Assembly (NCBI GenBank): GCA_964548505.1
Contig: CAZJQE010000001.1
Span: 1-52,453, forward strand
Length of the DNA stretch: 52,453 bases
Source of the DNA: an uncultured Candidatus Saccharibacteria bacterium
GTDB lineage: Bacteria; Patescibacteriota; Minisyncoccia; Phycocordibacterales; UBA9973
Reading direction: 5' to 3'
Notes under the pieces: model-generated
What the model saw: the letters and a program-made list of their open reading frames with translations, nothing else
Databases searched by the model: none
Told to the model about the DNA's origin: nothing
In this document: positions 140 through 39,033 of the stretch, piece by piece
How positions within the stretch are numbered: position 1 is the first letter of the stretch
How the letters are laid out: every line of letters begins with the position of its first letter
Made by a program: the position numbers and the translations under genes

Positions 140-532
140 TTAACAACCTGGAGTTCCTGCTACACAGGGAATCTGATTTATGGTACTAGAATTATTACCA
201 TTTAGTCCAAAAGTAGTGGTTACTATATTTACAAGACCCCACATACCAACGATAACAACCAAACCTATAATACCAAAGATAACTCTATTTCTTCCTGCCT
301 TCTTGGCTTCTTCGTCGTTACCTATCATGTAAGTGATAACTCCCCAGATGAAATATACAACCCCAAGAACAATCAAAATCGGAATTAATGTATTTAAAAT
401 TCCTCCAATTTTACAAAGAAGGGCCTCAATACCAGTTATTCCTTGACACTGATTGGAAGCTTGATTTTGTGCAAAAGCAAGTGGAGCAAACGCTAAACCA
501 AGACCTGATAAAACAATTAATTTATTTTTCAT
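140..532 (-). CDS. TrbC/VirB2-like T4SS pilin family protein
   Basis: Signal-like N-terminus MKNKLIVLSGLGLAFAPLAFA. Two hydrophobic helices are separated by a charged turn (VVYFIWGVITYMIGNDEEAKKAGRNRVIFGIIGLVVIV), which is the layout of conjugative VirB2/TrbC pilins and the T4SS_pilin family. Confidence 0.7.
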   Translation of the reverse strand: MKNKLIVLSGLGLAFAPLAFAQNQASNQCQGITGIEALLCKIGGILNTLIPILIVLGVVYFIWGVITYMIGNDEEAKKAGRNRVIFGIIGLVVIVGMWGLVNIVTTTFGLNGNNSSTINQIPCVAGTPGC

Positions 533-557
533 AATTTTTAAAACCTTATCTAATAAT

Positions 558-590
558 TTCCGCCATAAGCGGATCAGCCTATGGCTGAAA
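558..590. repeat. Double-hairpin intergenic motif (CCGC-N5-GCGG plus CAGCC-N3-GGCTG), copy 1
   Basis: TTTCCGCCATAAGCGGATCAGCCTATGGCTGAAA. This is the near reverse complement of the copy at 998-1031. Confidence 0.7.
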
Positions 591-672
591 ACGACCTTAT
601 AATACTAATAATAATAATTTCCTAAAAGGATACATATATAATAACATAAAACAAACTAATCTACAATAAAAA

Positions 673-975
673 CTACTGGCTTTTTACTTGTGGAACACTA
701 AAATCAATATTGAATGTATCAGTAAGTATTGACACAAGCCCCCAGACAGACACCATAACAGAAAGTGCGATAATGCCCCAAATCATAAAGCTTTTACCTT
801 TTGCTTTTTTTGCCTCTTCGTCATTATTTATAACATACTGCACAATACCCCAGACAATACTAGCAATAGCTAAAACAAAAATTAATGGAATAACGGAATG
901 ACTAATTATACAAGAAACATAACTTATCAAGTCACCCAACAATGGATTATTTCCTAAGGTACAAAAATTTGTCAT
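673..975 (-). CDS. TrbC/VirB2-like T4SS pilin family protein (paralog)
   Basis: Same two-helix core with a charged turn: IVWGIVQYVINNDEEAKKAKGKSFMIWGIIALSVMV. Confidence 0.7.
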   Translation of the reverse strand: MTNFCTLGNNPLLGDLISYVSCIISHSVIPLIFVLAIASIVWGIVQYVINNDEEAKKAKGKSFMIWGIIALSVMVSVWGLVSILTDTFNIDFSVPQVKSQ

Positions 976-997
976 AAATTTTAATAATAATTAATAA

Positions 998-1031
998 TTT
1001 CAGCCATAGGCTGATCCGCCTCAGGCGGAAA
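998..1031. repeat. Double-hairpin intergenic motif, copy 2 (inverted relative to copy 1)
   Basis: TTTCAGCCATAGGCTGATCCGCCTCAGGCGGAAA, lying between two pilin paralogs. Confidence 0.7.
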
Positions 1032-1032
1032 T

Positions 1033-1389
1033 TTATAATGAAAGCACGGTATTTGAAATAAGTTGTGCAATTGCCCAAGAGCCTAAAAGTATTGCCGCCC
1101 CAATCACTGTATAGAGCAATGCATCTTTTGCTTCTTTTATTTTTTCTGAATTACCTCGAGCAGATACAAAGAGAAAACCACAGTAAATTATTGCAAGAGC
1201 TATTATAGGAATACCAATTTTTAATGCTCCTTCAAGTAATGTCTTTATAAGACCGTTTATAGTGTCTGAACTTATTGGATTGTTAATTTTATTAACCTCA
1301 TCAGCAGCAAAAGAAATAATTGGTACAAAAAAAGCAAACGTAAATAAAGAAATTTTTGAACTAATATTTTTAATATAATTTATATTCAT
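1033..1389 (-). CDS. TrbC/VirB2-like T4SS pilin family protein (divergent paralog)
   Basis: Signal-like N-terminus. Core sequence IIYCGFLFVSARGNSEKIKEAKDALLYTVIGAAILLG. Confidence 0.6.
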   Translation of the reverse strand: MNINYIKNISSKISLFTFAFFVPIISFAADEVNKINNPISSDTINGLIKTLLEGALKIGIPIIALAIIYCGFLFVSARGNSEKIKEAKDALLYTVIGAAILLGSWAIAQLISNTVLSL

Positions 1390-1410
1390 ATCTTTTTATT
1401 ATACATTAAA

Positions 1411-2643
1411 TTAAAGCCCAATCCAAGAACCATCCCAACCTACAATTAATAACAATGTATGGATTATAAGCCACGCAGCTGCAGCAAAAATAAGACCAAG
1501 GGCAACATTGGTAAATATTTCCTTTGCTTTTGTTCTTTTGCCAGATTCACCGCCTGAAGTAACGAGCATAAATCCTGCATACGCAAACATAATAGCAGCA
1601 ATGGGTATTGCCATAACAAATAAGAGAAAATTTATTACTCTATTTATAAGTGCCATAAGATGATCAAAGTCACAATCCACGGGATTATCTTTTGTCCCAC
1701 ATGTCACAAGACCAATTGTTCCATCTCCACTATCACTACCACCAGAGAGACCTTCTTCTTTAAATGTATAAAATGAACCATTTGGTCCCTCACTGCTAGA
1801 ATATTTATAATGTCCATCTGGAGTTAATCCAGTAAATTGAATCAATCCAGTCCCATTATCATCGATAGTATAAGTCTGATAATCTGTATAAGTAGGCGTT
1901 GCAGAATCATAATTAACTACATCAAAACTTATTTCTTTATTATAAGGAAATCCCGAAAGTGCAAAATCAACCGATGTTTTTGTTATATCGTTAATATTAA
2001 CGGTCATGCCAGGAGGAATAGTATTTAGAACAAAGGCTGTAACTGTATAAACTTTCTTTTCTCCTTCATAAGAAGTGACAGTATAAGTAACTGAGTCGGT
2101 AAAATCTTTCACTACTCCAGATGCTGGACTTATTGTTGCACCATTTGAAACTGAAATTATTGGCAGTAAAGAAGTTACACTACTCCCCGCGGGTAATGTT
2201 AGAACAATAGAATTACCAGTTATCTCACCCATGATTGTAGGAACAAAATCATAAAGACCAATGGATACAATATCATTTACTGACAAAGTACCAGTTGCTG
2301 TAAAAGTAACTGTTCCGAGAGTTGCACTTTGTCCTGTATAATTAAAAGTACCAACATATTTTCCACCCGCAACTAATCCAGTAAATTCAGAAATTGCTCT
2401 ACCTGTATCATCACTTATAGCAGTTTGTGTCTTCGAAATATAAGGAACAGCGTGAGGATTACTAGAATGGCTATGCATATTAAAAGTAACGCCAGTAAGT
2501 GGTAAAAGACCATTAGCAACTAAAGTAACCGAAGTTGACGATAAATCTTCATACGAAATTGATTCTGTTGCCAAAGAAAATTTTGGAGAAATAAAAATAC
2601 TTAAAATGAAAACTATTATTAAAGCACTATATTTTAATTTCAT
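1411..2643 (-). CDS. Exported Ig/FN3-like repeat protein fused to a C-terminal VirB2-like pilin core
   Basis: N-terminal signal or anchor, then about 310 aa of beta-rich modules. Two modules are similar and end ...EFTGLVAGGKYVG and ...QFTGLTPDGHYKY. The C-terminal core is AIMFAYAGFMLVTSGGESGKRTKAKEIFTNVALGLIFAAAAW. Confidence 0.6.
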   Translation of the reverse strand: MKLKYSALIIVFILSIFISPKFSLATESISYEDLSSTSVTLVANGLLPLTGVTFNMHSHSSNPHAVPYISKTQTAISDDTGRAISEFTGLVAGGKYVGTFNYTGQSATLGTVTFTATGTLSVNDIVSIGLYDFVPTIMGEITGNSIVLTLPAGSSVTSLLPIISVSNGATISPASGVVKDFTDSVTYTVTSYEGEKKVYTVTAFVLNTIPPGMTVNINDITKTSVDFALSGFPYNKEISFDVVNYDSATPTYTDYQTYTIDDNGTGLIQFTGLTPDGHYKYSSSEGPNGSFYTFKEEGLSGGSDSGDGTIGLVTCGTKDNPVDCDFDHLMALINRVINFLLFVMAIPIAAIMFAYAGFMLVTSGGESGKRTKAKEIFTNVALGLIFAAAAWLIIHTLLLIVGWDGSWIGL

Positions 2644-8674: not shown

Positions 8675-10135
8675 ATGAGCAATGAAATTTTAGGGTTATC
8701 ACCACAAGATTTGTGGTGGAACTTTTGGCAGTTGACCCAAATCCCAAGGCCCTCTAAGAAAGAAGAAAAGGTCCGGGCATTTGTGGTGAAATTCGGCAAG
8801 AAACTCGGATTAGAAACCATTGTCGATGAGGTCGGCAATGTGATTATCAGGAAACCGGCCACTCCCGGAATGGAAAACAGGAAAGGAGTGATCCTGCAGG
8901 GCCACCTCGACATGGTACCTCAAAAGAACGGTGACAAAGTGCATGATTTCGAAAAAGACCCCATCGATGCCTGGATTGATGGCGAATGGGTAAAGGCCAG
9001 TGGCACTACCTTGGGGGCCGATAATGGTATGGGAGTTGCCGCCACCATGGCGATCCTGGAATCAAAAGATATCCCTCATGGTCTAGTGGAGGCACTTTTT
9101 ACCATTGATGAAGAGACAGGCATGACCGGGGCTAAGGGAATAAAACCCGGGTTATTGCAGGGAGATATCCTACTGAACCTCGATTCGGAAGATGAAGGGG
9201 AACTTTACATCGGCTGTGCCGGTGGAACAAATGCAAATATTACTTTTACCTACAATGAAGTTCAGGTCCCGACAGGCGTTAGCGCCTTCAAAGTAAGCAT
9301 CACCGGGTTAAAAGGCGGTCATAGTGGGGTTGATATTCACCTGGGAAGAGGAAATTCGAACAAGATTTTAAACCGTTTCCTTTGGCATGCTTCAAAGAAC
9401 CACGGCCTGAGGATCAATGCTATTGATGGTGGCAGCCTGCGAAATGCAATCCCGAGAGAATCGTTTGCAATGGTTACCGTTCCCGACGCTGCAAAGGATG
9501 ATTTTCTGAAATGCCTTGCTGATTTTGCGATAAAAGCAAAAAAAGAGCTTTCTGCAGTGGAACCAGATATGAAAATGGAAGCCGTTGTTGCTCTAATGCC
9601 CACTTTCGTGATGGATGAAACAACCCAAAACAACCTTTTCAATGCCATTTATGGTTGTCCTAATGGAGTAATCAGGATGAGCAATGAAATGGCCGGGCTG
9701 GTCGAAACTTCAACGAACCTGGCCATCGTAAAATCGGAGAACAAGGAAATCAACATTCGTTGCCTCTTAAGAAGTTCAGTAGATTCAGCCAAAGAGGACC
9801 TGGAGAACATGATTCAAAGCGTGTTTGAACTTGCAGGTGCCAAGGTGATCTTTGATGGGCAATATCCCGGTTGGAAACCAAATCCCGCCTCCCCCATCCT
9901 GAAAGAGATGCTGGAAATCTATAAAAACAAATATGGTAAAACACCCGAAATCAGAGCCATTCATGCAGGACTTGAATGCGGCTTACTGGGTGGTGTTTAT
10001 CCGAACTGGGACATGATCTCCTTTGGTCCGACCATTCGTTACCCGCATTCACCGGATGAAAAAGTCAATATTGAAACCGTTCAGAAATTCTGGGATTTCC
10101 TGGTAGAAACATTGAAATTCGTACCGGTAAAGTAA
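8675..10135 (+). CDS. pepD: Aminoacyl-histidine (Xaa-His) dipeptidase, M20C family
   Basis: LWWNFWQLTQIPRPSKKEEKV...GNVIIRKPATPGMENRKGVILQGHLDMVPQKN plus ...FTIDEETGMTGA is a typical PepD. G+C and codon choice (CTG, GCC, GGC) are clearly different from the flanks. Confidence 0.9.
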   Translation: MSNEILGLSPQDLWWNFWQLTQIPRPSKKEEKVRAFVVKFGKKLGLETIVDEVGNVIIRKPATPGMENRKGVILQGHLDMVPQKNGDKVHDFEKDPIDAWIDGEWVKASGTTLGADNGMGVAATMAILESKDIPHGLVEALFTIDEETGMTGAKGIKPGLLQGDILLNLDSEDEGELYIGCAGGTNANITFTYNEVQVPTGVSAFKVSITGLKGGHSGVDIHLGRGNSNKILNRFLWHASKNHGLRINAIDGGSLRNAIPRESFAMVTVPDAAKDDFLKCLADFAIKAKKELSAVEPDMKMEAVVALMPTFVMDETTQNNLFNAIYGCPNGVIRMSNEMAGLVETSTNLAIVKSENKEINIRCLLRSSVDSAKEDLENMIQSVFELAGAKVIFDGQYPGWKPNPASPILKEMLEIYKNKYGKTPEIRAIHAGLECGLLGGVYPNWDMISFGPTIRYPHSPDEKVNIETVQKFWDFLVETLKFVPVK

Positions 10136-10193: not shown

Positions 10194-10263
10194 TTTGCAT
10201 TTTAAAAAATTGACAGTTAAAAAAGAAGGTATATTATAAAGAAGTTCATTTAATAATTTTATA

Positions 10264-10421
10264 AGATTGATTGGGGAAACTGGTTAAATTCCAGTACAGT
10301 GCCGCTACGGTAAGCTCCGACTAAGGTCGGAGACAAGTCCGAATGCCAATCATTCCAATATTCCCCGAGCAGGATATTAATTTTTAGTAAATTTAAATTC
10401 TGCTCCCGCAGAATTTTTTTA
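10264..10421 (+). promoter_or_regulatory. Cobalamin (B12) riboswitch-like leader with terminator expression platform
   Basis: P1 is GATTG(10266)/CAATC(10348). The core reads GGGGAAACTGGTTAAATTCCAGTACAGTGCCGCTACGGT. There is a hairpin GCTCCGAC/GTCGGAG and a B12-box-like AAGTCCGAATGCC. Then comes the terminator ATTCTGC-TCCC-GCAGAAT plus T7 (10397-10421), with a competing GAGCAG/CTGCTC pairing. Confidence 0.7.
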
Positions 10422-10426
10422 TTTTT

Positions 10427-10858
10427 ATGTTAAAAACAAAAACACAAAAAATCACAGTAATATTTATTTTAATATTAATATGTATTTTTCTAATTTCAAT
10501 CTATCAAAAAAAACCTAACAGAAATCCTAACAGGCAAGACCTGTTAAAAACTAAACAGGTCTTGCCTGTTAATAATATAGCCTTTCTTGAAGTAAGTGGA
10601 GTTAAATACGAAACTAGTATCCAGCAAGAAATAAGTGTCTATGATTTTATGCAAAAATTAAAAGATGAACGAAAAATAGATTTTGAATCAAAAAATTATA
10701 CTGGTATAGGAAAATTTATTGAGAGTATTAATGAGGTAAAAAATGGAGATAAAAGTTGGGTATATTATGTTAACAATAAAAAAGCAGAAATCGGTGTATC
10801 AAATTACAAAATTAAAAATAGAGATATTGTCTCGTGGAAATACGAGAATAGCTATTAG
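10427..10858 (+). CDS. Membrane-anchored DUF4430-domain protein (transcobalamin beta-domain-like)
   Basis: N-terminal TM helix followed by one domain: VSGVKYETSI...VYDFMQKL...GKFIESINEVKNGDKSWVYYVNNKKAEIGVSNYKIKNRDIVSWKY, which matches the DUF4430 pattern. Confidence 0.7.
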   Translation: MLKTKTQKITVIFILILICIFLISIYQKKPNRNPNRQDLLKTKQVLPVNNIAFLEVSGVKYETSIQQEISVYDFMQKLKDERKIDFESKNYTGIGKFIESINEVKNGDKSWVYYVNNKKAEIGVSNYKIKNRDIVSWKYENSY

Positions 10859-10891
10859 TTGTAAGTTAATGTTTCTAAGTTAGAAAATGAA

Positions 10892-12499
10892 ATGAAAAAT
10901 ATAAAAATAATATTATTGATAATATTTTCAGTTATTATTTTGTTTGGTATAGTAATTACTGCCCATGCAACACTCAATGTTGACACAGAAGTAAATGTAC
11001 CTGAAATTTGCAGTGTAGCTGATACTGACGGGGTTACTCATAACTATGGAGAAGTAAATCAATATCTTGCTATTTGCGCACTTTACTCAGCAATAAATAA
11101 CGGTTCAATATTTAACACTCAACTCTCAAATCAATATCCAAACCTAGGACTATTTGTTATTGCAATTAACAACGTTGTTGCAGACCCAAATAGCCAATAT
11201 TGGGCAATTTATCAAAATGGAAATTTTGCAAATTCTGGTATTACTTCACTCCCAGTCATAGCAGGAGATACAATAATGTTTCAACTCCACGATTTTTCCG
11301 ACAATAACCAAGGAGATCAGGTAACACTGCATATACATTCTTTGGGTGCACCAACACCTATGGGCTCTGGAGCACTTATCCAATCTACTAATACAACTTC
11401 TCTAGAGACTTTGGATATAGTTCCAGAAAAAATAATTAAACCAATTTTTGACACAAAAAAAGCCTTTGATTTTTTAATATCACAACAAAAAGAAGATGGG
11501 TCATGGAGCACAGATTTATACACTGATTGGTCAGCATTAGCAATTGAACCAAATGAAAATCTCCAAGAACAAAAAAACAAACTTGGAACTTATTTAAAAG
11601 AAAATAAATTATCTAATATAAGTTTAACTGATTATGAAAGACACGTTATGGCTCTTATGGCGCTTGGAATAAATCCATATAAATTAAATGGCGAAAACTA
11701 TGTAGATAAAATAATAAAAGAGTTTGATGGTAATCAGTTTGGGAATAAAGACGAGGATAATGACGACATCTTTGCACTTATAATTTTACAAAATGCGGGT
11801 TTTGGAAAAAATGAAGAAATTATAAATAATACAAGTAATTTTATTCTTTCAAAACAAAAAGAAAATGGTTCATGGGATGAAAATCCAGATATGACTGGTG
11901 CTGGAATTGAGTCTTTGGCATTTTTAAAAGAAAATGAACAAATAAAAAATGCATTAGAAAAAGCAAAGGAATATTTAAAACAAAACCAAAAAGACGATGG
12001 AGGATTTGGAAACATTTCTTCTACTGCGTGGGCAATAGAAGGTATAATTTCTCTAGGTGAAAAAGTAGAAAATTGGAAAAAAAATGATAATACTCCAATT
12101 GATTACTTAGCACAAAACCAAGATCAAGATGGCGGAATAAAAAATGAAAACAAAGATACAAAACTCTGGGAAACCATATATGTACTTTCTGCTATATCTG
12201 GTCACTCATGGACAGAAATTATGCAAAAGTTTGGTAAACCAATCATGGAACAAAAAGTAGAGATCATAGAAGAAAAAATCCCAGTTAACCTCTCTTATGG
12301 TAAAAATATAACTGAAACCAAAAAAATAGTTACTAAACAAAATATACCAAATGTAGCTAAAACTACTATTATAGAAAATTTAGGAACTATTAATACAGCC
12401 TCAGTCATTAACGCAACAACAAACACAAATGTGAAAACAAAAAATACAGAGAGTTCTTTACAAAGATTTCTAGGTAAAATTTTTGAAATGTTTTTTTAA
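10892..12499 (+). CDS. Exported DUF4430 plus prenyltransferase/squalene-cyclase-like alpha/alpha-repeat protein
   Basis: Signal peptide. DUF4430-like region ...GLFVIAINNVVADPNSQYWAIYQNGNFANSGITSLPVIAGDTIMFQL. Then repeated QQKEDGSWS, KQKENGSWD, NQKDDGGFG and NQDQDGGIK motifs typical of terpenoid-cyclase/prenyltransferase repeats. Confidence 0.7.
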   Translation: MKNIKIILLIIFSVIILFGIVITAHATLNVDTEVNVPEICSVADTDGVTHNYGEVNQYLAICALYSAINNGSIFNTQLSNQYPNLGLFVIAINNVVADPNSQYWAIYQNGNFANSGITSLPVIAGDTIMFQLHDFSDNNQGDQVTLHIHSLGAPTPMGSGALIQSTNTTSLETLDIVPEKIIKPIFDTKKAFDFLISQQKEDGSWSTDLYTDWSALAIEPNENLQEQKNKLGTYLKENKLSNISLTDYERHVMALMALGINPYKLNGENYVDKIIKEFDGNQFGNKDEDNDDIFALIILQNAGFGKNEEIINNTSNFILSKQKENGSWDENPDMTGAGIESLAFLKENEQIKNALEKAKEYLKQNQKDDGGFGNISSTAWAIEGIISLGEKVENWKKNDNTPIDYLAQNQDQDGGIKNENKDTKLWETIYVLSAISGHSWTEIMQKFGKPIMEQKVEIIEEKIPVNLSYGKNITETKKIVTKQNIPNVAKTTIIENLGTINTASVINATTNTNVKTKNTESSLQRFLGKIFEMFF

Positions 12500-12503: not shown

Positions 12504-13121
12504 CTATTTCATCGTAGTAAAAAACCCTAACAATACAGCTACAATATTCAGAATTGAATGTGTAATCGAAATAAGCACTAAGTTTGGATATTTTATATAT
12601 AACCATGCAAAGAAAACCCCAGAAATAAAAGCGATTGGGAGACCTATTCCTAAATTTGGGAAAATTATATGTAAAAACATGAAAAGTATTGCATTAATAA
12701 AAATTATAAAATAATTATTACTATATATTTTTTTTAACATTGGAATCAAAAAAGAACGAAAAGCAAATTCTTGAAAAAAAGAAATTGGTATGAAAAATAT
12801 CCAAGTTCTTATGAGATACTTTTGTGTCTCTATGTCGGGCATATTTAATTTGTGATCTAGTAGAAACAAAGCTACTACTCCAATTACAACAAAAGATAAA
12901 TAAAAAGGAATTGCTTTTTTAAAGTTATCATGATGAATCCCCATTTCTTCATAACTCCACTCTTCACGTGTGATGATCCCATAAATGATAAGGGAGCAAA
13001 TTGTAAGTAAAACAATCCGCCAACTCATTGGGATAATACCAAAATACAATAAAAAAACTGGCAATATAAATATAATGAATATCTGAGTTAGTATTAACTT
13101 TTTTGATGGCACATTTACCAT
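12504..13121 (-). CDS. CPBP family intramembrane glutamic endopeptidase (CAAX protease-like)
   Basis: Polytopic membrane protein. Carries the motifs FFQEFAFRSF, FMFLHIIF and ITHSILN. Confidence 0.8.
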   Translation of the reverse strand: MVNVPSKKLILTQIFIIFILPVFLLYFGIIPMSWRIVLLTICSLIIYGIITREEWSYEEMGIHHDNFKKAIPFYLSFVVIGVVALFLLDHKLNMPDIETQKYLIRTWIFFIPISFFQEFAFRSFLIPMLKKIYSNNYFIIFINAILFMFLHIIFPNLGIGLPIAFISGVFFAWLYIKYPNLVLISITHSILNIVAVLLGFFTTMK

Positions 13122-13171: not shown

Positions 13172-13702
13172 TTAAAGATGTATCCAGAATCTTAGCATTG
13201 TTTCTCCTTCTTCATTTTTCATTTTGTTAATAAATATTCCACCATTGTTTTCTATTATTTTCCTTGAACCAATATTTGTTTCTAAACAAGTAATTATTAT
13301 TTTTTTATTATAAAATTTTTTTGCTTTTCTAAGCCCAAGCCTAAGCATTTCTGTACCATATCCTTTTCTTCGTTCTCTTGGAACAACTGCATAACCAATA
13401 TATCCACCAGTTGCAGACAAAAGTTTACTAGGCTTCTGTCTTATATCTAAACGTCCAACTACTTTATTCCCCAAAACTCCCCAATATAAGGTCGAGGGCA
13501 CTCTTCCCTTTTTTAAATTTATTCCCTTTCTTCTTTCTGTCATTTTTTTATTATATATATGAAAATCTTTCAAAGAGGTAAATAGCCCAGTACCACCACC
13601 GGCTGCTGTTATTCTTTTATCCTTTTGGTATTCCTTTTCTCCCTTTAAATAAGAGAGTGCATATTTTTTATTTGGTAAAATAAGTTTCAAATTCTGTTTC
13701 AT
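13172..13702 (-). CDS. GNAT family N-acetyltransferase
   Basis: Acetyl-CoA binding motif VVPRERRKGYGTEMLRLGLRKAKK. Confidence 0.8.
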   Translation of the reverse strand: MKQNLKLILPNKKYALSYLKGEKEYQKDKRITAAGGGTGLFTSLKDFHIYNKKMTERRKGINLKKGRVPSTLYWGVLGNKVVGRLDIRQKPSKLLSATGGYIGYAVVPRERRKGYGTEMLRLGLRKAKKFYNKKIIITCLETNIGSRKIIENNGGIFINKMKNEEGETMLRFWIHL

Positions 13703-14217: not shown

Positions 14218-14847
14218 TCAACTAAGCTTTCGGGGAATTTTTTTATGTTCTTCAATCTTCCCAGCTTCAATTTCTATTTTTTCTGCTTTTCGGAATTTTC
14301 TAACAACTTTCTTTGGTGCAATGTCGTAGTATTTAATTTTATAGAGTTCATTATCTATCCCCCACAAGTTCCCTTCCGTTCCCTCCCAACCTTTTTCGAA
14401 AATATTTAAATTAAGTGGCTTGGAATATTGTCGTAAAGTTTTTACACCACTATCTAAAAAATATTCATGAAAATATGACATCACAAGTTCACGAATATTT
14501 TTATAAACTGGCTCACGATATCGTAGAACTGCATGATTAGTTTTTGAGAGTGCTCCCCAAAGCCCGTCTTGCTTAAACGGAACAATCAAATGACTAAAAT
14601 CACTTTTGGTAGTCATAAGATGCACAAGTAATGGCTGGTACCCATGTTTTGACAAAATATATGCTCCAAGTATTGCCCCTTCAGCACAATGGGCTTTTCC
14701 TTTTCTCATAATAGATATCGGGGATTCCAATGTATCCTCACCGTTCTCTTCAAAATTAAATTTCAAAGAATTCAAATAATCCTGCACTTTTGCCGGAGTG
14801 TTTAATTTTCTAATTAATTCTAATTCTTTTTTAGTAAATTCTAACAC
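14218..14847 (-). CDS. Transglutaminase-like (papain-fold) protein, putative
   Basis: KGKAHCAEGAILGAYILSKHGYQP resembles the catalytic-Cys segment of transglutaminase-like domains. A downstream His lies in DFSHLIV. Confidence 0.45.
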   Translation of the reverse strand: MLEFTKKELELIRKLNTPAKVQDYLNSLKFNFEENGEDTLESPISIMRKGKAHCAEGAILGAYILSKHGYQPLLVHLMTTKSDFSHLIVPFKQDGLWGALSKTNHAVLRYREPVYKNIRELVMSYFHEYFLDSGVKTLRQYSKPLNLNIFEKGWEGTEGNLWGIDNELYKIKYYDIAPKKVVRKFRKAEKIEIEAGKIEEHKKIPRKLS

Positions 14848-23919: not shown

Positions 23920-24103
23920 GGATAAACAATGCTCGCATTAGAGCAAAAAATATACTCCGTAGAAGCATTTTTTTCTGAATTTTGATGCTCAAACGGAGCA
24001 CGTGGTTAATGGGGCCGATTACCCCAAGGGCCACAGAACGTGATCCCATACAAAAGAGATGGCAACGTTCACCCACCACCGGACAACCGTTCGGTGGCTT
24101 TTT
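23920..24103 (+). ncRNA. Candidate structured small RNA (unclassified)
   Basis: Promoter TTGACA(23885)-17 nt-TAAACT(23908). The G+C-rich segment 23990-24097 contains nested hairpins (CTCCGT/ACGGAG, CACGTGG/CCAC..ACGTG, GGGG/CCCC). A terminator follows: CCACCGGAC-AACC-GTTCGGTGG plus CTTTTTATTT. There is no convincing plus-strand ORF. Confidence 0.4.
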
Positions 24104-25529
24104 ATTTCTTTCTTTTTCGTCTAGGTTTTGTTTTTGATTTTTGAGACACAGACACTCGTGAGACAAAATTATTTTGCATTTTTTCAAGTTCAGATTTTGA
24201 AAGTTTCTTAAATAGTTCCCCATTCTCTTTGCTTTCTTTTTTGAAATCTTTATCAAGCAGAAGTACTTCTGGATCTGCCAAGAGTGCATCTCTGTGAAAC
24301 CCCACGAGTCTGACGCCTTCCAAAGTACGTGCTCGAGAAAGTGCTACATAACCCATTCCATAAGCAAAAGTTTTTGATAAATCAATTTCTGCAGAATCCA
24401 AACTCATCCCTTGGCTTTTATGAATCGTGATAGCCCAAGCCAGACGCAAAGGTAATTGTGAAATCACTGCTTTTTGTTTTCCATTTTCTTCAATCCCCCA
24501 TTCTTCAGGAGTAACTGTGATTTCAGTTCCATTTTGTAACCTAATAATCGGACTATCGTCTGACAGGAATGTATAAACTTTTCCCCGCGTTCCATTAGCA
24601 TATCCTTTCTCAAAATTATTTTTTAAGAACATTACCTCTGCCCCAATTTTCAAACGCAAAATCTCGGGCGCCAAACAACTTTTCTTTAGTATTGAAACAA
24701 GTACCGGAGTCCCTTCATCTTTCATTTGGTAAGTTTTTTCAGACCCGCCAATTTTATTCAAACGTATTTGGTTGATAACGTCCACATCCATGTTGTGTGT
24801 ATAAAGCCGAGTTGGCTCTATGCCCAATGGTAACTTCACGTCAATTCTTGATTCAATAAGTTCAAAATGTTTGTCGGAAACATTTCCTGCGCGCACTGCA
24901 TTTAATATTTCTAAAAATTCTGTGTCTTCCTGACGATATTGCTCGGAGAGATAGCACACCGCCGGACGCATCGTCCGCCAAGCACGCGAATGAATTACCA
25001 TGTCTTTTGGGGTCTCATCTTCTGTCTCTTCTTCGTTTGTAAAAAGGTTAATACTTGGCTCTTTTTTTATTTCAGTCGGTGCAACACTTTTTCTAACCGG
25101 AGGCAATTGAAAAAAATCGCCACACAGGATCACTTGCATTCCGCCAAAAGCCCGTTCATTCCTTTTTAAATGCCGGCAAATCCATTCCACCATATCTAGC
25201 CTTTTCGCATCGAGCATTGAAACTTCATCAATAATTAAAACATTTGTGTTTTGAATTCTCTTTACTAAATATTCCTTGCTCTCCAACATTTCTAAATCAT
25301 ATTGTGACAGATTGTCTCGAATACCAATCCCCGCCCAAGCATGAATCGTCATTCCACTCAGATGTGTAGCCGCGATGCCGGTAGATGCTGTCACTGCCGT
25401 TGGAATATTTTTATCTCGCAAATAATTTATATATTGATTAAGAAGATGCGTTTTCCCAGAACCAGCCGAACCAGTGATGAAAACATTCACTCCACTTTTC
25501 AAAATCTCCAATGCTTCCTTTTGTGTCAT
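24102..25529 (-). CDS. Pif1/RecD-like SF1B DNA helicase
   Basis: Walker A GSAGSGKTHLL, VLIIDEVSMLD, ILCGDFFQLPPV and AITIHKSQGMSLD. Confidence 0.9.
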   Translation of the reverse strand: MTQKEALEILKSGVNVFITGSAGSGKTHLLNQYINYLRDKNIPTAVTASTGIAATHLSGMTIHAWAGIGIRDNLSQYDLEMLESKEYLVKRIQNTNVLIIDEVSMLDAKRLDMVEWICRHLKRNERAFGGMQVILCGDFFQLPPVRKSVAPTEIKKEPSINLFTNEEETEDETPKDMVIHSRAWRTMRPAVCYLSEQYRQEDTEFLEILNAVRAGNVSDKHFELIESRIDVKLPLGIEPTRLYTHNMDVDVINQIRLNKIGGSEKTYQMKDEGTPVLVSILKKSCLAPEILRLKIGAEVMFLKNNFEKGYANGTRGKVYTFLSDDSPIIRLQNGTEITVTPEEWGIEENGKQKAVISQLPLRLAWAITIHKSQGMSLDSAEIDLSKTFAYGMGYVALSRARTLEGVRLVGFHRDALLADPEVLLLDKDFKKESKENGELFKKLSKSELEKMQNNFVSRVSVSQKSKTKPRRKRKK

Positions 25530-25575
25530 TTTCCCATTGTAACAGATTTTTTTAAATTTTTATTTTTCAAGACAC

Positions 25576-25971
25576 TTACCAATTTTTTAGGGTAATTGTG
25601 ATTTGAAGCACAGTCGCAAAACATACCCATGCGAGATATGGGAGGTTTGCATATGCGACATATCGCAAGTGTGGCCAAATAGCGAAAAGTGCCCATACGA
25701 GTGTGCCAAGCACAAGAAGAATGTCCACCATGGCTAGTGCATTATTTCGAAGTCCAAATTGGATTGAAGTAAAAGCAAAATTAAAAACAAGATTTAAGAC
25801 AAATGGCAATGCCACGATTGCTGGAATTTGCTTATTTACTACTTTATAAAAAACCGTGCCATAAGTTGCTGCGATTATAATATAGAGCACTGTCCATACC
25901 GGCCCAAAAAGCCACGAAGGAGGTGCCCAAGATGGTTTTACAAGTTGCGAGTACCATTCATATGATTTCAT
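25576..25971 (-). CDS. tspO: TspO/MBR family tryptophan-rich sensory protein
   Basis: WYSQLVKPSWAPPSWLFGPVWTVLYIIIA. Confidence 0.85.
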   Translation of the reverse strand: MKSYEWYSQLVKPSWAPPSWLFGPVWTVLYIIIAATYGTVFYKVVNKQIPAIVALPFVLNLVFNFAFTSIQFGLRNNALAMVDILLVLGTLVWALFAIWPHLRYVAYANLPYLAWVCFATVLQITITLKNW

Positions 25972-25977
25972 AAATTT

Positions 25978-26376
25978 TTATTTAATGGAAGTAATAATAA
26001 AATACGCAATCACACTCGTGACAGCTGTAACCAGTATTCCCCAAGAAATATCGATCAAGGTCATTTTGGTTGGCCAGCCAGCAAGTGTAGCTTGATTTGT
26101 AAGATCATATGCCGAATACGCAGCAAGGCCAAGAACTGCCCCGCGCCACAAGGCTTCATGCCAAGATCCTGATGCTACTGCTGGCAATACTGCGAGCAAT
26201 AGCACTGCAAGTGCATAAATTGGATAAAAGAAAAGCGCTGGAGTAATGTTCATCGTTATTGAAAAAATTCCAGACATTAAATTTGCATAAAAACTTTTTG
26301 CCACAAGTCCAATCCAAATAGCATCAAGAGCAACGAGAGGTATTAAAGTTGAAACGTAATATATTATGTATTTCAT
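25978..26376 (-). CDS. DUF2177-like membrane protein
   Basis: The N-terminus LIPLVALDAIWIGLVAKSFY and four TM helices fit the family as recalled from memory. Confidence 0.6.
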   Translation of the reverse strand: MKYIIYYVSTLIPLVALDAIWIGLVAKSFYANLMSGIFSITMNITPALFFYPIYALAVLLLAVLPAVASGSWHEALWRGAVLGLAAYSAYDLTNQATLAGWPTKMTLIDISWGILVTAVTSVIAYFIITSIK

Positions 26377-26427
26377 ATCCTAATGATAACATTTTCTGAT
26401 AAAAAAGTTCAAAAAATCCCTTTCCAA

Positions 26428-26452
26428 CCTAGTAAGAACAGTTCTTACTAGG
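26428..26452. repeat. Perfect 12-bp-arm palindrome CCTAGTAAGAAC-A-GTTCTTACTAGG
   Basis: Lies in a divergent promoter region. It shares the AAGAAC-N-GTTCTT core with copies at 28646, 29292 and 45232. Confidence 0.8.
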
Positions 26453-26527
26453 GACTAGACTTTTTGTGTAAATATGGTAAATTGAAACTAGAAAATTGAG
26501 TATTCACTTCTTTAAAAACAACCACTT

Positions 26528-26935
26528 ATGGATAAAGTAGTTCATTTCGGGATGATTTTTATCATCATTGCAGCAACCTTGTATAGTGTTTCAATATTAA
26601 CCGAAAAGATACAGAAAAAACTAAAAAGATGGATGCTTCGCACCTTCGCTCTTGGTTTTCTTTCTGATATCGTTGGAACATCTACAATGATGGCTGCTCT
26701 AGTGGTAACCGGTAAATTTGGTTATCATGTTCCTTTTGGGATAGCGGCTTTATTAATTATGGGAGTCCATTTTTATTGAGCTATAAAATCTTTTAGAAAT
26801 CTGGAGAAATACCAGAAACTCTTTACTAAATGGTCAATTGTAGCCTGGGGTGTTTGGATGTCCGCATTAATTACCGGAAGTCCCCTACCAAAGATCATTT
26901 GGAATCTGATTAAAATTCATTTCAATATTCATTAA
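26528..26935 (+). pseudogene. Small 4-TM membrane protein gene interrupted by one in-frame TGA (26777-26779)
   Basis: The ORF stops at ...IMGVHFY(TGA). It then continues in the same frame for 51 codons (AIKSFRNLEKYQKLFTKWSIVAWGVWMSALITGSPL...) to a TAA at 26933-26935. The combined 135 aa looks like a single protein. Confidence 0.5.
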
Positions 26936-26953
26936 TATCTAAATCTTAATTTT

Positions 26954-27169
26954 ATGGCAAACAAAAGTTTTCATGTGTATCTTACGAGTACACAAAAAAC
27001 AAAATTGGAGAAGATTTTAAATGGAAAAATCGAACTAAAGAAAACTCCAATAGATCATGATTATAATAAACCACGTTTTAATGTATTCCCCGAAGAAGAA
27101 CATGTCTTCACGTTAAGACAGGCCTGTAGAAAACTTGGATTAACTTTACATGCTGATAGCGTGCAATAA
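26954..27169 (+). CDS. Hypothetical protein
   Basis: 71-aa ORF followed by a terminator. No recognised motif. Confidence 0.4.
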   Translation: MANKSFHVYLTSTQKTKLEKILNGKIELKKTPIDHDYNKPRFNVFPEEEHVFTLRQACRKLGLTLHADSVQ

Positions 27170-27193
27170 AGTAATCTTTAAAAACGGGAAAGG

Positions 27194-27225
27194 AAGCTGA
27201 ATGACAACATTCGGCTTTTTATTTT
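27194..27225 (+). terminator. Rho-independent terminator
   Basis: AAGCTGAATG-ACAA-CATTCGGCTT plus TTTTATTTT. Confidence 0.7.
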
Positions 27226-27231
27226 ATTAAT

Positions 27232-27270
27232 TACTTTACTAAACTAAAGTAGAATAAAGATAAAAAATTT
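27232..27270 (+). repeat. TACTTTACTAAACTAAAGT motif, copy 1 (extended form)
   Basis: TACTTTACTAAACTAAAGTAGAATAAAGATAAAAAATTT. Nearly identical to the copy at 28671-28709. Confidence 0.85.
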
Positions 27271-27346
27271 AGTAAGGGTTTATTGAGTAATAATAAGCAA
27301 GGACAAATTAAGTGAAAGCCTTGCTCGTGGATACTAGTTCGCGAAA

Positions 27347-27574
27347 TTATTTTGCGGGTTCGTGGATGGTCTCGGGTTTTTGGGGCATAACAAAGGCCAT
27401 GAAAATATAAGCAATGATTCCAGGGAAACAAGCCGTAAAAACAGCAAGGAGAATATAGAAAACTCTTAGAATTGTTGGGTCAATTTCAAAATACTCCCCC
27501 ATCCCTCCCAATACCCCAAAAATAACCTTATTGTCTTTGCTTTTATATAATCTTTTATTTTGCATTTTGTTCAT
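27347..27574 (-). CDS. PspC-domain membrane protein
   Basis: RLYKSKDNKVIFGVLGGMGEYFEIDPTILRVFYILLAVF. Confidence 0.8.
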   Translation of the reverse strand: MNKMQNKRLYKSKDNKVIFGVLGGMGEYFEIDPTILRVFYILLAVFTACFPGIIAYIFMAFVMPQKPETIHEPAK

Positions 27575-27637
27575 AGTTTTATTATATTACATCTTTAAAA
27601 TTTCATACAATCACACTCGCAAGGACGGTCCTTGCGA
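27568..27637 (+). repeat. 70-bp direct repeat, copy 1 (start codon plus promoter-like AT tract plus REP palindrome)
   Basis: TGTTCATAGTTTTATTATATTACATCTTTAAAATTTCATACAATCACACTCGCAAGGACGGTCCTTGCGA. Five or six mismatches relative to 28563-28632. Confidence 0.85.
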
Positions 27638-27746
27638 ATAACGGTATACAAAGTCGTCAGTTTGTATCTTTTTGGTCGAACAATGTATACAAACCATTTA
27701 TCCACATTTTATTGAAAATTAATCAATTTCTTGTTATACTCTCTTT

Positions 27747-27831
27747 GTAGTGAAAACTACCCTCGCCTGAAGGATACCAGGATTGTATTTATACCCAACC
27801 CGAGCTTTACCGCTCGGGTTGGTTTGTTTTT
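27747..27831 (+). ncRNA. Candidate antisense small RNA overlapping the 3' end of the NYN gene
   Basis: Plus-strand promoter TTGAAA(27712)-17 nt-TATACT(27735). Then an 11-bp hairpin CCAACCCGAGC/GCTCGGGTTGG (27795-27822) plus TTTGTTTTT. No plus-strand ORF. The hairpin loop contains the NYN stop codon. Confidence 0.4.
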
Positions 27832-28445: not shown

Positions 28446-28562
28446 AAAATAATTTTATCACAACTCCCCGCTAAATGCTTTTTGAGAACTAATTTCTTTA
28501 ATTCTTCCAAGTCTGCTAACTTTTTCTTATATATTTCTTCAAGTTTTTTAACTATTTGTTAT

Positions 28563-28632
28563 TGTTCATAATTTTATTATATTACATCTTTAAAATTTCA
28601 TACAACCACCCTCGCAAGGACCATCCTTGCGA
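28563..28632 (+). repeat. 70-bp direct repeat, copy 2
   Basis: TGTTCATAATTTTATTATATTACATCTTTAAAATTTCATACAACCACCCTCGCAAGGACCATCCTTGCGA. It carries an orphan ATGAACAA start that reads only MNNNK-stop. Confidence 0.85.
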
Positions 28633-28645
28633 GTAGTCCTTGCGA

Positions 28646-28662
28646 GCAAGAACGGTTCTTGC
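28646..28662. repeat. Palindrome GCAAGAAC-G-GTTCTTGC
   Basis: Read directly. It is adjacent to a partial TCCTTGCGA half-site. Confidence 0.8.
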
Positions 28663-28670
28663 ATATTTCC

Positions 28671-28709
28671 CTACTTTACTAAACTAAAGTGGAATAAAGA
28701 TAAAAATTT
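28671..28709 (+). repeat. TACTTTACTAAACTAAAGT motif, copy 2 (extended form)
   Basis: CTACTTTACTAAACTAAAGTGGAATAAAGATAAAAATTT. Confidence 0.85.
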
Positions 28710-28742
28710 GGAAAAGAGACTGAGCAAGGGTAATCCTTGCAA

Positions 28743-29270: not shown

Positions 29271-29291
29271 GAATTATTTTTAAGCAATTTA

Positions 29292-29310: not shown

Positions 29311-29335
29311 AGGTAAAATAAATTTTCTTATAAAA

Positions 29336-39032: not shown

Positions 39033-39033
39033 A

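Follow-up and report, generated by a model that had tools for sequence, protein, structure and literature searches.

Within the window (the whole 52,453-nucleotide stretch of DNA that was analysed), a compact cobalamin-type riboswitch with a terminator/antiterminator expression platform controls an operon encoding two exported proteins. The larger of these is built from the pair of folds between which transcobalamin, intrinsic factor and haptocorrin hold B12, with the beta domain placed ahead of the alpha domain. Together, the products of the two genes (gene 1 and gene 2) probably form a corrinoid-regulated surface module that captures external B12-type cofactors in a Patescibacterium. Capture of B12 was also the original prediction for this pair and is supported by the analysis described here; we infer both that the proteins bind corrinoid and that the switch works in the OFF direction. 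The features of the region are collected in Table 1.

Table 1 Features of the leader and of the two genes, in coordinates of the window
Feature	Position	Strand	Basis
Sigma-70-like promoter TTGACA-16-TATTAT	10210-10237	+	11/12 consensus matches
Conserved 5′ leader box GTTCATTTAA	10244-10253	+	between -10 box and aptamer
Compact cobalamin-clan riboswitch aptamer	10262-10356	+	Rfam matches, family model, covariation
P1/P3 closing helix TGATTGG/CCAATCA	10268-10274 with 10346-10352	+	aptamer
Core string GGGGAAACTGGTTAAATTCC	10273-10292	+	aptamer
Helix P5	10279-10283 with 10291-10295	+	aptamer
Core string CAGTGCCGCTACGGT	10297-10311	+	aptamer
Helix P4	10298-10300 with 10304-10306	+	aptamer
P6 base	10308-10310 with 10339-10341	+	aptamer
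P6 hairpin CTCCGAC/GTCGGAG	10315-10321 with 10326-10332	+	aptamer
B12-box-like AAGTCCGAATGCC	10335-10347	+	aptamer
Platform strand A CCCGAGCAGGAT, 5′ strand of antiterminator	10364-10375	+	invariant columns, pairing energies
Intrinsic terminator	10395-10426	+	terminator scan
Terminator arms AAATTCTGC and GCAGAATTT, loop TCCC	10395-10403 and 10408-10416	+	hairpin
Terminator T run TTTTTTTATTTTT, reaching the gene 1 ATG	after 10416, to 10426	+	terminator
Gene 1, 143 aa	10427-10858	+	PF14478 match, N-terminal hydrophobic segment
Perfect palindrome, 19-bp arms, in-frame within gene 1 linker	10527-10572	.	sequence
Gene 2, 535 aa	10892-12499	+	Pfam matches, AlphaFold model
Gene 2 predicted signal peptide MKNIKIILLIIFSVIILFGIVITAHA	10892-10969	+	n-h-c organisation and A-x-A site, read from sequence
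Gene 2 N-terminal beta domain, DUF4430/SLBB type, residues 29-151	10976-11344	+	PF14478, AlphaFold
Gene 2 alpha6/alpha6 toroid, residues 188-445, 12 helices	11453-12226	+	AlphaFold, Foldseek, Pfam
Gene 2 C-terminal tail	12227-12499	+	AlphaFold, conserved columns

The leader upstream of the two genes is a member of the cobalamin riboswitch clan (Rfam CL00101). A cobalamin aptamer core had been recognised here in the original prediction, and the strings quoted for it are all in place. RF00174 (Cobalamin) matches positions 10226-10368 with 31.5 bits, equal to its gathering score, whilst the best Rfam model on the 371-nt leader, AdoCbl-II (RF01689; 10264-10356, E 5e-7), reaches 35.8 bits, slightly below its gathering score of 36.5. 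Leaders from relatives give 34-47 bits on RF00174 and 41.7 bits on RF01689, with one of them (L006) exceeding the RF01689 threshold. Several leaders of the family score 31.5-47 bits with the Rfam models, that is, at or just over the thresholds, compared with 90-130 bits with a lineage-specific model; the family covariance model R1, built from 48 related leaders, finds the window leader at 10262-10378 with 116 bits (E 1e-25). In these 48 leaders the aptamer helices comprise 19 pairs with 95.8% of cells paired, against 15-45% when the partners are slid, and compensatory changes occur at 10 of the pairs, the observed values being reached by none of 500 shuffles. The leader also contains the invariant aptamer strings CAGTGCCGC..CGGTAA and AAGTCCGA, and its folding beats 200 of 200 shuffles (z = -3.96). 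In having a compact core with no large peripheral extension the aptamer resembles the class II cobalamin riboswitches (RF01689, env8-type). It differs from them in that J1/3 of RF01689 is deleted, so that P1 and P3 are continuous, and in its terminator platform with an invariant CCGAGCAG strand; no kissing-loop partner was identified.

Upstream of the aptamer, relatives share a TTGACA and a -10 box at an equal distance from it, and the GTTCATTTAA leader box reads GTTCRTTTAA in these sequences. Downstream lies the expression platform. Within strand A, CCGAGCAG is invariant among relatives and GAGCAGGAT (10367-10375) is able to pair with ATTCTGCTC (10397-10405, strand B) in competition with the terminator, strand B being the terminator 5′ arm, with strand A as its alternative partner. 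In 68 distinct related leaders the pairing of strand A with the terminator 5′ arm has a median energy of -12.95 kcal/mol, compared with -7.35 kcal/mol in shuffled controls, and a terminator is found in all 68, 29-90 nt downstream of strand A. Both the intrinsic terminator and the competing antiterminator pairing that had been proposed are therefore present and conserved.

By this arrangement, low intracellular corrinoid would allow strand A to pair with strand B, blocking the terminator so that both genes are transcribed; with corrinoid on the aptamer, by analogy with known switches, the terminator would form and the operon would be off. Known cobalamin riboswitches preceding uptake genes are OFF switches. 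The opposite sense, in which corrinoid induces the operon and the proteins handle excess corrinoid or respond to a B12-rich partner, seems to us very improbable. It draws on a coupling of aptamer to platform that could not be derived: strand A has no above-chance complement within the aptamer, and variants in L5 do not visibly covary with the platform. Default co-transcriptional pairing of strands A and B, however, gives read-through, which is the state expected at low B12.

The association of riboswitch and gene pair is conserved. The family model finds exactly one riboswitch, on the + strand and upstream of the small gene, in 79 of 79 sources, namely the window and those 78 related Patescibacterial loci whose sequence covers this upstream region; the 13 loci with no match all begin within or past the gene 1 homologue. 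The expectation that orthologues, too, would sit behind B12 riboswitches is thus borne out in every assessable locus. Genes 1 and 2 are neighbours in 80 loci and overlap in several, an arrangement that fits co-expression. Few of the relatives bear names; those that do are labelled Paceibacterota, Minisyncoccia or Nomurabacteria. Of the comparative evidence found, conservation of the riboswitch speaks most strongly for a B12 role of the DUF4430/toroid proteins. We predict such a role for the pair because of this arrangement in the 78 relatives and the window, and because a Firmicute relative has a similar arrangement together with ECF genes.

In that Firmicute, Thermincola ferriacetica, two gene sets lie behind three cobalamin riboswitches, which score 116-120 bits on RF00174. 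CbiM, PDGLE and DUF3842 make up one set; the other contains the genes for an SLH-anchored protein with its toroid ahead of DUF4430, for a further DUF4430 protein, for CbiQ and for a double ABC ATPase. The two systems have in common their control by cobalamin riboswitches and a large toroid plus DUF4430 protein accompanied by a second DUF4430 protein. In Thermincola, however, the large protein (1384 aa) has S-layer homology anchors and its toroid precedes the beta domain, as in transcobalamin, whereas in gene 2 of the window the beta domain comes first; the three Thermincola riboswitches are of the classical long type rather than one compact element, and only there are ECF genes clustered with the pair.

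The gene 1 protein has a basic N-terminus and one transmembrane segment (approximately residues 9-26), from which a variable linker leads to a beta-grasp domain of the DUF4430/SLBB type (approximately residues 51-143). The domain matches PF14478 (DUF4430; nt 10634-10846) with E 5.7e-12 and 46.4 bits, against a gathering threshold of 23.8 bits, and this match and the hydrophobic N-terminus agree with the earlier description of a membrane-anchored single DUF4430 domain. All 127 homologues are small DUF4430 proteins, the few named ones coming from Patescibacteria, and the family shares the motif SVYDFM...GMGKFI...WIYYVNG...GVSNYK..GD.VSWKYE. The domain is homologous to the N-terminal domain of gene 2 (hhalign 96.6%, E 4.7e-10). 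It can also be aligned colinearly with the entire transcobalamin (TC) beta domain (333-401), placing W61, G73 and Y77 on TC W377, G390 and Y394, although this alignment is statistically weak, the hhalign pairwise matches to human TC having E values of 0.009 and 0.027 and probabilities below 5%. The linker carries a palindrome that recurs in the gene 1 homologue of one relative (L042) and is present as a single arm in another (L102), about 150 nt past its riboswitch; it probably lies outside the mechanism.

Gene 2 encodes a protein with a putative signal peptide, whose cleavage is predicted before T27, followed by a beta domain, a linker, a toroid and a tail. The beta domain matches PF14478 with E 5e-8 and 33.7 bits (threshold 23.8); 42 of 48 members of the gene 2 family match PF14478 too. 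AlphaFold models it as strands 29-52, a helix at 60-69 and five further strands, with pLDDT mostly above 90; the clade to which such domains were assigned by Burroughs et al. is defined by a beta-grasp core with an extra beta-hairpin following the helix (PMC1796856). Searched with the gene 2 family profile, the PDB yields the DUF4430 protein 3u7z (1.8e-4) and intrinsic factor, through its C-terminal domain (0.056). That the beta domain of transcobalamin has the DUF4430 fold, as the original prediction held, agrees with the published description of DUF4430 as the C-terminal domain of TCN proteins (PMC4350170). In the overall model (pLDDT 83.5) the beta domain is joined by a disordered linker to a 12-helix barrel with pLDDT of about 90-99. 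The pTM of 0.58 means that the mutual packing of the two domains is not predicted.

The toroid contains four QxxDGG/S-W repeats (QQKEDGSW, KQKENGSW, NQKDDGGF and NQDQDGGI). These are the four motifs originally quoted for a protein described as having a signal peptide, a DUF4430 domain and at least four such repeats, and all are found in the translation; the order of the two domains is indeed reversed relative to transcobalamin. Pfam returns SQHop_cyclase_C (E 4e-10) in addition to DUF4430, whereas Cobalamin_bind (PF01122; E 3.6e-4) reaches 20.1 bits, under its threshold of 25 bits. The latter family is above threshold in three relatives (P0112, 33.5 bits; P0087, 32.0 bits; P0064, 26.1 bits) and has E below 1e-3 in 8 of 48 close family members. 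A comparison of the gene 2 model by Foldseek, in which the alignments are dominated by the toroid, yielded transcobalamin (2v3n, 2.6e-5; 2bb6, 5.2e-5), intrinsic factor (3kq4, 1.4e-4) and haptocorrin (4kki, 1.1e-3). The resemblance to these proteins that had been anticipated is therefore found, but it is not exclusive to them: class II terpene cyclases (9e-7) and complement TED domains match the toroid equally well or better. By hhalign, the toroid string GGFGNISSTAWAI falls on TC GHFGNVYSTPLAL in a statistically weak match, and no residue of gene 2 could be assigned to the place of His173, which coordinates cobalt in TC.

Could gene 2 then encode an extracellular enzyme of the terpene-cyclase/prenyltransferase type, acting on an isoprenoid or a corrinoid, with DUF4430 as an accessory binding domain? 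In sequence and in fold, gene 2 is matched best by squalene–hopene cyclase (SHC) and drimenyl-diphosphate synthase, the toroid being nearer in sequence to SHC (1.6e-11) than to transcobalamin, and an invariant acidic D289-N-D-D292 resembles the DxDD of class II cyclases. Against this, the only barrel of the protein has 12 helices and about 260 residues, whilst the cyclases have a two-barrel (beta-gamma) body of about 600 residues at the cytoplasmic face, and the signal peptide would place the protein outside the cell, away from prenyl-diphosphate substrates. HMMER puts the catalytic D376 of SHC on D333 (DMT), in a weak segment of 2.6 bits, rather than on DNDD 289-292, and gave no segment aligning this DNDD with the SHC DxDD (D374-D377). 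With the riboswitch and the DUF4430 context favouring B12, we consider the enzyme explanation the most improbable of those discussed here. The invariant polar residues of the toroid include Y210, T211 and W213, T246, E249 and R250, and N290, D291 and D292; D333, T335, W380, Q410, W426 and Y430 are invariant as well. Transcobalamin holds the corrin amides via polar residues at the barrel mouth.

In the tail of gene 2, beyond the toroid, a beta hairpin (458-480) is followed by disordered sequence rich in T and N (483-520) and by a conserved helix at the end, KxWFxxxLxxIF (522-534); the tail may serve as a spacer with an anchor or docking helix. Some relatives of gene 2 have extra adhesin-like domains (Big_2, HYR and SpaA-like).

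A transcobalamin-like reading of such proteins is not new, having been put forward in 2007 by Burroughs, Balaji, Iyer and Aravind (Biol Direct 2:4; PMC1796856). They described bacterial transcobalamin-like proteins made up of SLBB (= DUF4430) and toroid domains in both orders, noted that the operon has a further, paralogous gene for an extracellular SLBB protein and that these genes occur in organisms that do not make B12, and predicted B12 scavenging for the SLBB plus toroid architectures (PMC1796856). The window pair shares with those systems the two domains, the C-terminal toroid (as in their Bacillus example), the signal peptide and the second extracellular SLBB gene. The clade was, however, called a Gram-positive innovation, usually accompanied by CbiO/CbiQ transporter genes (PMC1796856), whereas the host here is a Patescibacterium and the operon is limited to two genes, no transporter being present within 6 kb in any of 92 loci. 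Riboswitches are absent from the 2007 text (PMC1796856) but present upstream of pairs of the window type in every assessable locus. With transcobalamin, intrinsic factor and haptocorrin themselves, the pair shares the alpha6/alpha6 barrel, flexible linker and small beta domain; it differs in the reversed order, in the extra stand-alone beta-domain protein and in being cell-attached rather than circulating. The rtpR gene encodes an AdoCbl-dependent reductase. In L. rhamnosus rtpR is adjoined by a DUF4430 gene (PMC9963975).

Instead of complete cobalamin, the ligand of the pair might be an incomplete corrinoid, for instance cobinamide, or a different tetrapyrrole, for instance heme. In L. sakei, Lsa1836-1840 comprise ECF genes together with split exported beta-like and alpha-like proteins and have been assigned to heme uptake; for the split pair Lsa1839/Lsa1840, beside the ECF genes, heme scavenging was proposed from modelling and uptake experiments (bioRxiv 10.1101/864751). 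This, the only experimental work on a homologous split system, argues for heme uptake. As in the window, the beta-like and alpha-like proteins are exported and their genes lie side by side; unlike in the window, they are ECF-linked, the large protein of the window also carries its own beta domain, and the window pair is preceded by a riboswitch, an element that the consulted passages of the preprint do not mention (bioRxiv 10.1101/864751). A reviewer of Burroughs et al. likewise warned that the ligands may be more diverse (PMC1796856), and cobinamide is bound by both the TC beta domain and haptocorrin (PMC5599065). Set against this are the cobalamin-clan riboswitches in 78 of 78 assessable loci, in the window and in the Firmicute relative, as riboswitches nearly always sense the product or cargo of the genes that they control. 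A ligand of this other kind is in our estimation unlikely, and a cobinamide-type cargo would still amount to corrinoid capture.

The preferred reading is therefore capture of a B12-type corrinoid at the cell surface, where the toroid and a beta domain would close around the ligand. The membrane-proximal gene 1 protein might supply the beta half in trans or receive the ligand, and would then hand it to a membrane transporter whose gene lies at another place in the genome. BtuG and BtuH of Bacteroides are riboswitch-controlled surface lipoproteins that seize corrinoids before transport, working with the outer-membrane protein BtuB. The role proposed here is similar, but the folds are unrelated and no BtuB-like partner is seen for the window pair. 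For human TC, alpha and beta domains expressed separately assemble on cobalamin, and the beta domain alone binds both cobalamin and cobinamide (PMC5599065).

In keeping with the original prediction, which reported neither a BtuCDF/ECF transporter nor a B12-dependent enzyme in the window, scanning 40 further ORFs against Pfam, from about 50 non-overlapping ORFs that reach 100 aa, revealed no Btu or ECF component, no CbiQ/EcfT or CbiO/EcfA and no B12-dependent enzyme. Nor is there a transporter within 6 kb in the 92 Patescibacterial loci, or a recurring transporter family in the operon or its flanks among the flank annotations that were precomputed or spot-checked. The lack of a linked transporter gene and the adhesin-like domains of the gene 2 relatives would suit proteins that bind corrinoid at the surface for a purpose other than import, such as withholding it from competitors or the host, storage, or action as a B12-dependent adhesin or signal receptor. 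Yet Firmicutes carry the same domains inside ECF transporter operons (Thermincola; Burroughs et al. 2007, PMC1796856), uptake genes are typically under feedback control by their cargo, and the riboswitch reports intracellular corrinoid, which implies that the cell imports it. We hold a function apart from import to be improbable. Within the import reading, it is a tentative suggestion that the compact riboswitch and stand-alone pair mark, in this group of Patescibacteria, a dedicated form of corrinoid acquisition with no operon-linked ECF/ABC importer, in which the beta-only gene 1 protein might act as a membrane-proximal relay taking B12 from the secreted gene 2 protein.

What is new here is modest: the lineage, the stand-alone two-gene operon with its transporter-free surroundings and the lineage-specific compact riboswitch. 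No report of a transcobalamin-like surface B12 trap in Patescibacteria was found in the searchable literature. Corrinoid binding by the proteins, if shown, would confirm biochemically for the first time the 2007 prediction, in which bacteria possess the two-domain B12 clamp that animals later used in transcobalamin, intrinsic factor and haptocorrin. It would reveal how Patescibacteria, ultra-small and poor in biosynthesis, get a costly cofactor from their community or host, and, if the importer-free reading is true, would imply that B12 is passed to an unrecognised membrane route or taken directly from a host cell. The lineage would then offer a simple, testable bacterial model for the working and origin of the animal two-domain B12 clamp.

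The promoter, leader and both genes form a self-contained transcription unit on the forward strand of the window, for which the original prediction proposed a cobalamin riboswitch in control. Every string quoted from the leader in that prediction is found in the window. The Rfam match to RF00174 (Cobalamin) scores 31.5 bits, exactly the curated gathering threshold, whilst the isolated leader gives RF01689 (AdoCbl-II) as its top model (35.8 bits against a threshold of 36.5, E 5e-7) and is missing the J1/3 segment of that model. The leader fold is more stable than all 200 of 200 shuffled versions. In an alignment of 48 distinct leaders, the aptamer helices hold standard pairs in 95.8% of cells compared with 15-45% when the partners are slid, and 10 of the 19 aptamer pairs show changes on both sides (ATTGG/CCAAT becoming ATTGA/TCAAT, for example, in six sequences); none of 500 shuffles reached the observed pairing values. 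A covariance model derived from these 48 leaders gives the window a score of 116 bits. By score and by covariation among relatives, the window RNA is thus a cobalamin-clan riboswitch, and the position of these RNAs at the edge of the Rfam thresholds points to a lineage-specific compact variant. Most related leaders also keep a GTTCRTTTAA box between the -10 hexamer and the aptamer, outside the Rfam core, which could belong to the initial transcribed region or serve as an alternative pairing partner for P1.

Positions of features in the window
Feature	Position	Strand	Remarks
T4SS_pilin/TrbC (type IV secretion pilin) matches	140-2643	-	four consecutive ORFs, one of them 410 aa long with the pilin domain at its C-terminus
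Transcription unit	10210-12499	+	
Sigma-70-like promoter, TTGACA-16 nt-TATTAT	10210-10237	+	11/12 consensus positions
RF00174 match	10226-10368		
GTTCRTTTAA box	10244-10253		
RF01689 match	10264-10356		
GAGCAGGAT	10367-10375		
Terminator hairpin	10395-10416	+	followed by a T run reaching the start codon of gene 1
ATTCTGCTC	10397-10405		
Gene 1	10427-10858	+	143 aa
Inverted repeat, AACAGGCAAGACCTGTT...AACAGGTCTTGCCTGTT	10527-10572		perfect, 19-bp arms
Gene 2	10892-12499	+	535 aa
Rce1-like CPBP protease	12504-13121		
GNAT gene	13172-13702		
Transglutaminase/vasohibin-like gene	14218-14847	-	
PIF1-like helicase	24102-25529	-	
TspO/MBR family protein	25576-25971	-	
DUF2177 membrane protein	25978-26376	-	
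NYN-domain protein	27807-28445	-	
Schlafen-group-3-type helicase	29336-31309	-	
LCAT-like lipase domain protein	32182-35826	-	1214 aa
DsbB-like protein	37122-37685	-	
HMA-DsbD_2 fusion	39034-40143	-	
P-type ATPase with HMA domain	40156-42411	-	
IS200-like Y1 transposase family match	46813-47481	-	222-aa ORF
tRNA gene	52400-52453	+	cut by the window end

Between aptamer and gene 1, GAGCAGGAT is able to pair with ATTCTGCTC, covering most of the 5' arm of the terminator; we refer to the platform strand (10364-10375) as strand A and to its partner within that arm as strand B. This arrangement is conserved. In all 68 distinct leaders a T run lies 29-90 nt past the invariant strand CCGAGCAG, and the pairing of this strand with the terminator 5' arm has a median energy of -12.95 kcal/mol, compared with -7.35 kcal/mol in shuffled controls. 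A search for an aptamer partner for the invariant platform strand CCCGAGCAGGA found none above chance, with a duplex energy equal to the shuffled mean, and inspection of the related leaders by eye revealed no covariation between L5, the loop of aptamer P5, and the platform of the kind that would signal a kissing loop. The OFF direction of the switch is therefore assigned by analogy. The GGGG/CCCC pairing of the minimum-free-energy fold of the window was rejected, being specific to the window and not conserved. In many relatives (the loci L023 at 9537-9650, L033, L044 and others) the sequence of the terminator 3' arm is GCAGGA, 8-9 nt upstream of the small gene's ATG, so that the terminator would there also mask a Shine-Dalgarno-like AGGA; the arm in the window reads GCAGAA and has a longer spacing to the ATG.

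Genes 1 and 2 have many homologues, few of them named; the named ones come almost entirely from Patescibacteria (Paceibacterota, Nomurabacteria, Minisyncoccia). Nine related loci were fetched from genomes and 80 from metagenomes, with two more obtained by exact protein look-up. Rfam models place cobalamin-clan riboswitches upstream in seven of the fetched loci, with a sub-threshold AdoCbl match in another (L009). The family covariance model gives exactly one match per source in 79 sources including the window, always on the + strand and upstream of the small gene. The 13 loci lacking a match all start inside or past the gene 1 homologue, indicating that their leaders are merely cut off. The orthologues thus do sit behind B12 riboswitches, in 79 of the 79 sources where the leader is visible. 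Taken together, the covariation, the single match per source upstream of the small gene and the conserved terminator pairing establish the riboswitch as genuine, of the transcription-termination type and an obligatory part of the operon. In one locus (L007, 4302-7623) the riboswitch is followed by two small DUF4430 genes (183 and 131 aa) and then by a 760-aa gene 2 homologue.

Both genes encode members of the DUF4430 family. The gene 1 protein was correctly described as a membrane-anchored DUF4430 protein: its N-terminus is basic, it contains a single hydrophobic segment, and it matches DUF4430 with E 5.7e-12. This domain and the N-terminal domain of gene 2 are homologues (hhalign 96.6%, E 4.7e-10). 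Against PDB sequences, the full gene 1 family profile gave no match and the domain-only profile chance-level matches only. The variable linker of gene 1 contains, in frame, a perfect inverted repeat that is single-copy within the window; an identical palindrome is found in the gene 1 homologue of one related locus (L042, 4942-4978) and one arm in another (L102), ~150 nt past its riboswitch. A small mobile palindromic insert is one possible explanation for this repeat, an internal structure another.

All three features predicted for gene 2 were recovered, namely the signal peptide (last residues AHA), the DUF4430 domain (5e-8) and repeats of squalene-cyclase/prenyltransferase type (4e-10). AlphaFold gave a pLDDT of 36 from the single sequence and a mean of 83.5 with a 48-sequence alignment. 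In the resulting model, residues 29-151 form a beta-rich domain, 154-175 a disordered linker and 188-445 an alpha/alpha barrel of 12 helices, and the C-terminus is made up of a hairpin, a T/N-rich disordered stretch and a short terminal helix that is conserved; with a pTM of 0.58, the relative placement of the two domains is not predicted. Foldseek searches of the PDB retrieve the alpha/alpha toroid superfamily as a whole, with class II terpene cyclases on top (9e-7), followed by complement TED domains and transcobalamin (TC) (2v3n at rank 4, 2.6e-5; 2bb6 at rank 7), with intrinsic factor at rank 21 and haptocorrin at rank 50. The closest sequence-profile match of the barrel is likewise a squalene-hopene cyclase (1.6e-11), and the motif DNDD at residues 289-292 also raised the possibility of a terpene cyclase. 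That reading was rejected, since gene 2 encodes a single barrel behind a signal peptide and its DNDD does not align with the catalytic motif.

In profile searches, the beta domain of gene 2 matches a DUF4430 crystal structure (3u7z, 1.8e-4), with a weak match to intrinsic factor's C-terminal domain as well (0.056). Alignments of gene 1 and of the gene 2 toroid with human TC (the sequence used is identical to PDB 7qbf_A) by hhalign are colinear and place conserved residues on conserved TC residues, and are statistically weak, serving as consistency checks only. Pfam's eukaryotic Cobalamin_bind family gives gene 2 a sub-threshold 20.1 bits against 25; three gene 2 relatives of roughly 600 residues reach the threshold, and 8 of 48 close family members match at E < 1e-3. 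Other relatives bear additional Big_2, HYR or SpaA-like domains. The predicted fold and the sequence therefore agree with a transcobalamin-type protein of barrel plus beta domain, and by themselves cannot tell it apart from other toroid proteins; DUF4430 and the genomic context carry most of the case for B12.

As originally noted, the window appears to lack an uptake system: neither B12-dependent enzymes nor Btu or ECF components turned up among 40 further ORFs scanned, of some 50 that are non-overlapping and at least 100 aa long. Clustering of every ORF of at least 70 aa in 92 Patescibacterial loci likewise revealed no conserved transporter family or B12 enzyme recurring around the pair. The two genes lie side by side in 80 loci, overlapping in several, and sit in a conserved housekeeping neighbourhood with opposite-strand genes on either side. 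The recurring neighbours (SBP_bac_5, RNase J, an MFS gene outside the operon, and HtrA-like, cytidylyltransferase-like and transglutaminase/vasohibin-like genes) reflect this synteny. The last of these encodes a 203-216 aa protein with faint matches (L023, 11586-12215 (-), is another example) and, in 70 loci, lies next to gene 2 in convergent orientation, overlapping its end by 13 nt in ~29 of them; simple synteny is the probable reason. The window differs in that the CPBP protease, the GNAT gene and a small membrane ORF displace it. The protease, directly downstream of gene 2, was rejected as a partner, occupying the same position in only 18 loci.

Elsewhere in the window, the TspO/MBR gene, from a family of tetrapyrrole-binding membrane proteins, adjoins the DUF2177 gene; a link to the B12 module is not in evidence. 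The ATPase, DsbD_2 fusion and DsbB-like genes make up a metal/redox cluster (37122-42411). The two helicases and the NYN protein, in a stretch (24102-35826) that also encodes the lipase-domain protein, could mark a defence-like or mobile region.

The combination seen here has a precedent. In defining the SLBB superfamily, which includes the DUF4430 domain, Burroughs, Balaji, Iyer and Aravind (2007; PMC1796856) described bacterial transcobalamin-like versions fused in either order to an alpha/alpha toroid, with signal peptides and a second paralogous SLBB gene in the operon. The hosts usually lack key B12 biosynthesis enzymes, the genes are linked to CbiO/CbiQ, and B12 scavenging was proposed, along with an origin of the animal carriers in bacteria (PMC1796856). 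Our reading of the module is essentially theirs. The C-terminal domain of TCN proteins is itself recognised as DUF4430 (PMC4350170). In L. sakei, a split alpha/beta pair has been assigned to heme uptake (bioRxiv 10.1101/864751). In the literature searched, that study is the only experimental work on a bacterial homologue. The rtpR gene encodes an AdoCbl-dependent reductase. In L. rhamnosus, a DUF4430 gene adjoins rtpR (PMC9963975). No report of B12 riboswitches or of such proteins in Patescibacteria was found in the searchable literature, which is not proof of absence.

A fuller arrangement than that of the window is seen in the Firmicute Thermincola ferriacetica (L010, 1510-12283), where three classical cobalamin riboswitches within 3 kb precede two gene sets, two of these riboswitches lying in tandem directly before the gene for a 1384-residue SLH-anchored protein. 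The first set encodes CbiM, PDGLE and DUF3842, and the second this barrel-then-DUF4430 protein, a second DUF4430 protein, CbiQ and a double ABC ATPase. Together with the Patescibacterial loci, this places the same two domains under B12 control in two phyla, tied in one of them to an ECF importer. The operon in the window, in contrast, is not one of the ECF-linked operons, and gene 2 differs from the eukaryotic transcobalamin family in Pfam threshold and in domain order. It is putatively transcobalamin-like in its working, though outside the eukaryotic family by these two criteria.

The window contains a corrinoid-class riboswitch in which an antiterminator competes with the terminator, ahead of two co-expressed exported proteins, one a membrane-anchored beta domain and the other a secreted protein of beta domain, linker and barrel. 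When intracellular corrinoid is low, the A:B helix would form first and transcription would read through, whilst ligand bound to the aptamer would favour the terminator. Outside the cell, corrinoid may be clamped between a beta domain and the mouth of the barrel, which would be lined with the invariant polar residues Y210/T211/W213, T246/E249/R250, N290/D291/D292, D333/T335, W380 and Q410. The gene 1 protein could provide the beta half in trans or take over the ligand near the membrane, with import then proceeding via a transporter encoded elsewhere. Experiments offer a precedent for the in-trans possibility: on its own, the beta domain of human TC binds both cobalamin and cobinamide, and alpha and beta domains produced apart come together on cobalamin (PMC5599065).

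Overall, the original prediction proved accurate and biologically coherent, and the comparative evidence for the B12 connection is very strong. The module is a lineage-specific addition to a predicted class rather than a categorically new system. What makes it distinctive is its Patescibacterial host, its minimal two-gene operon without a transporter and its compact riboswitch variant with an invariant platform strand.
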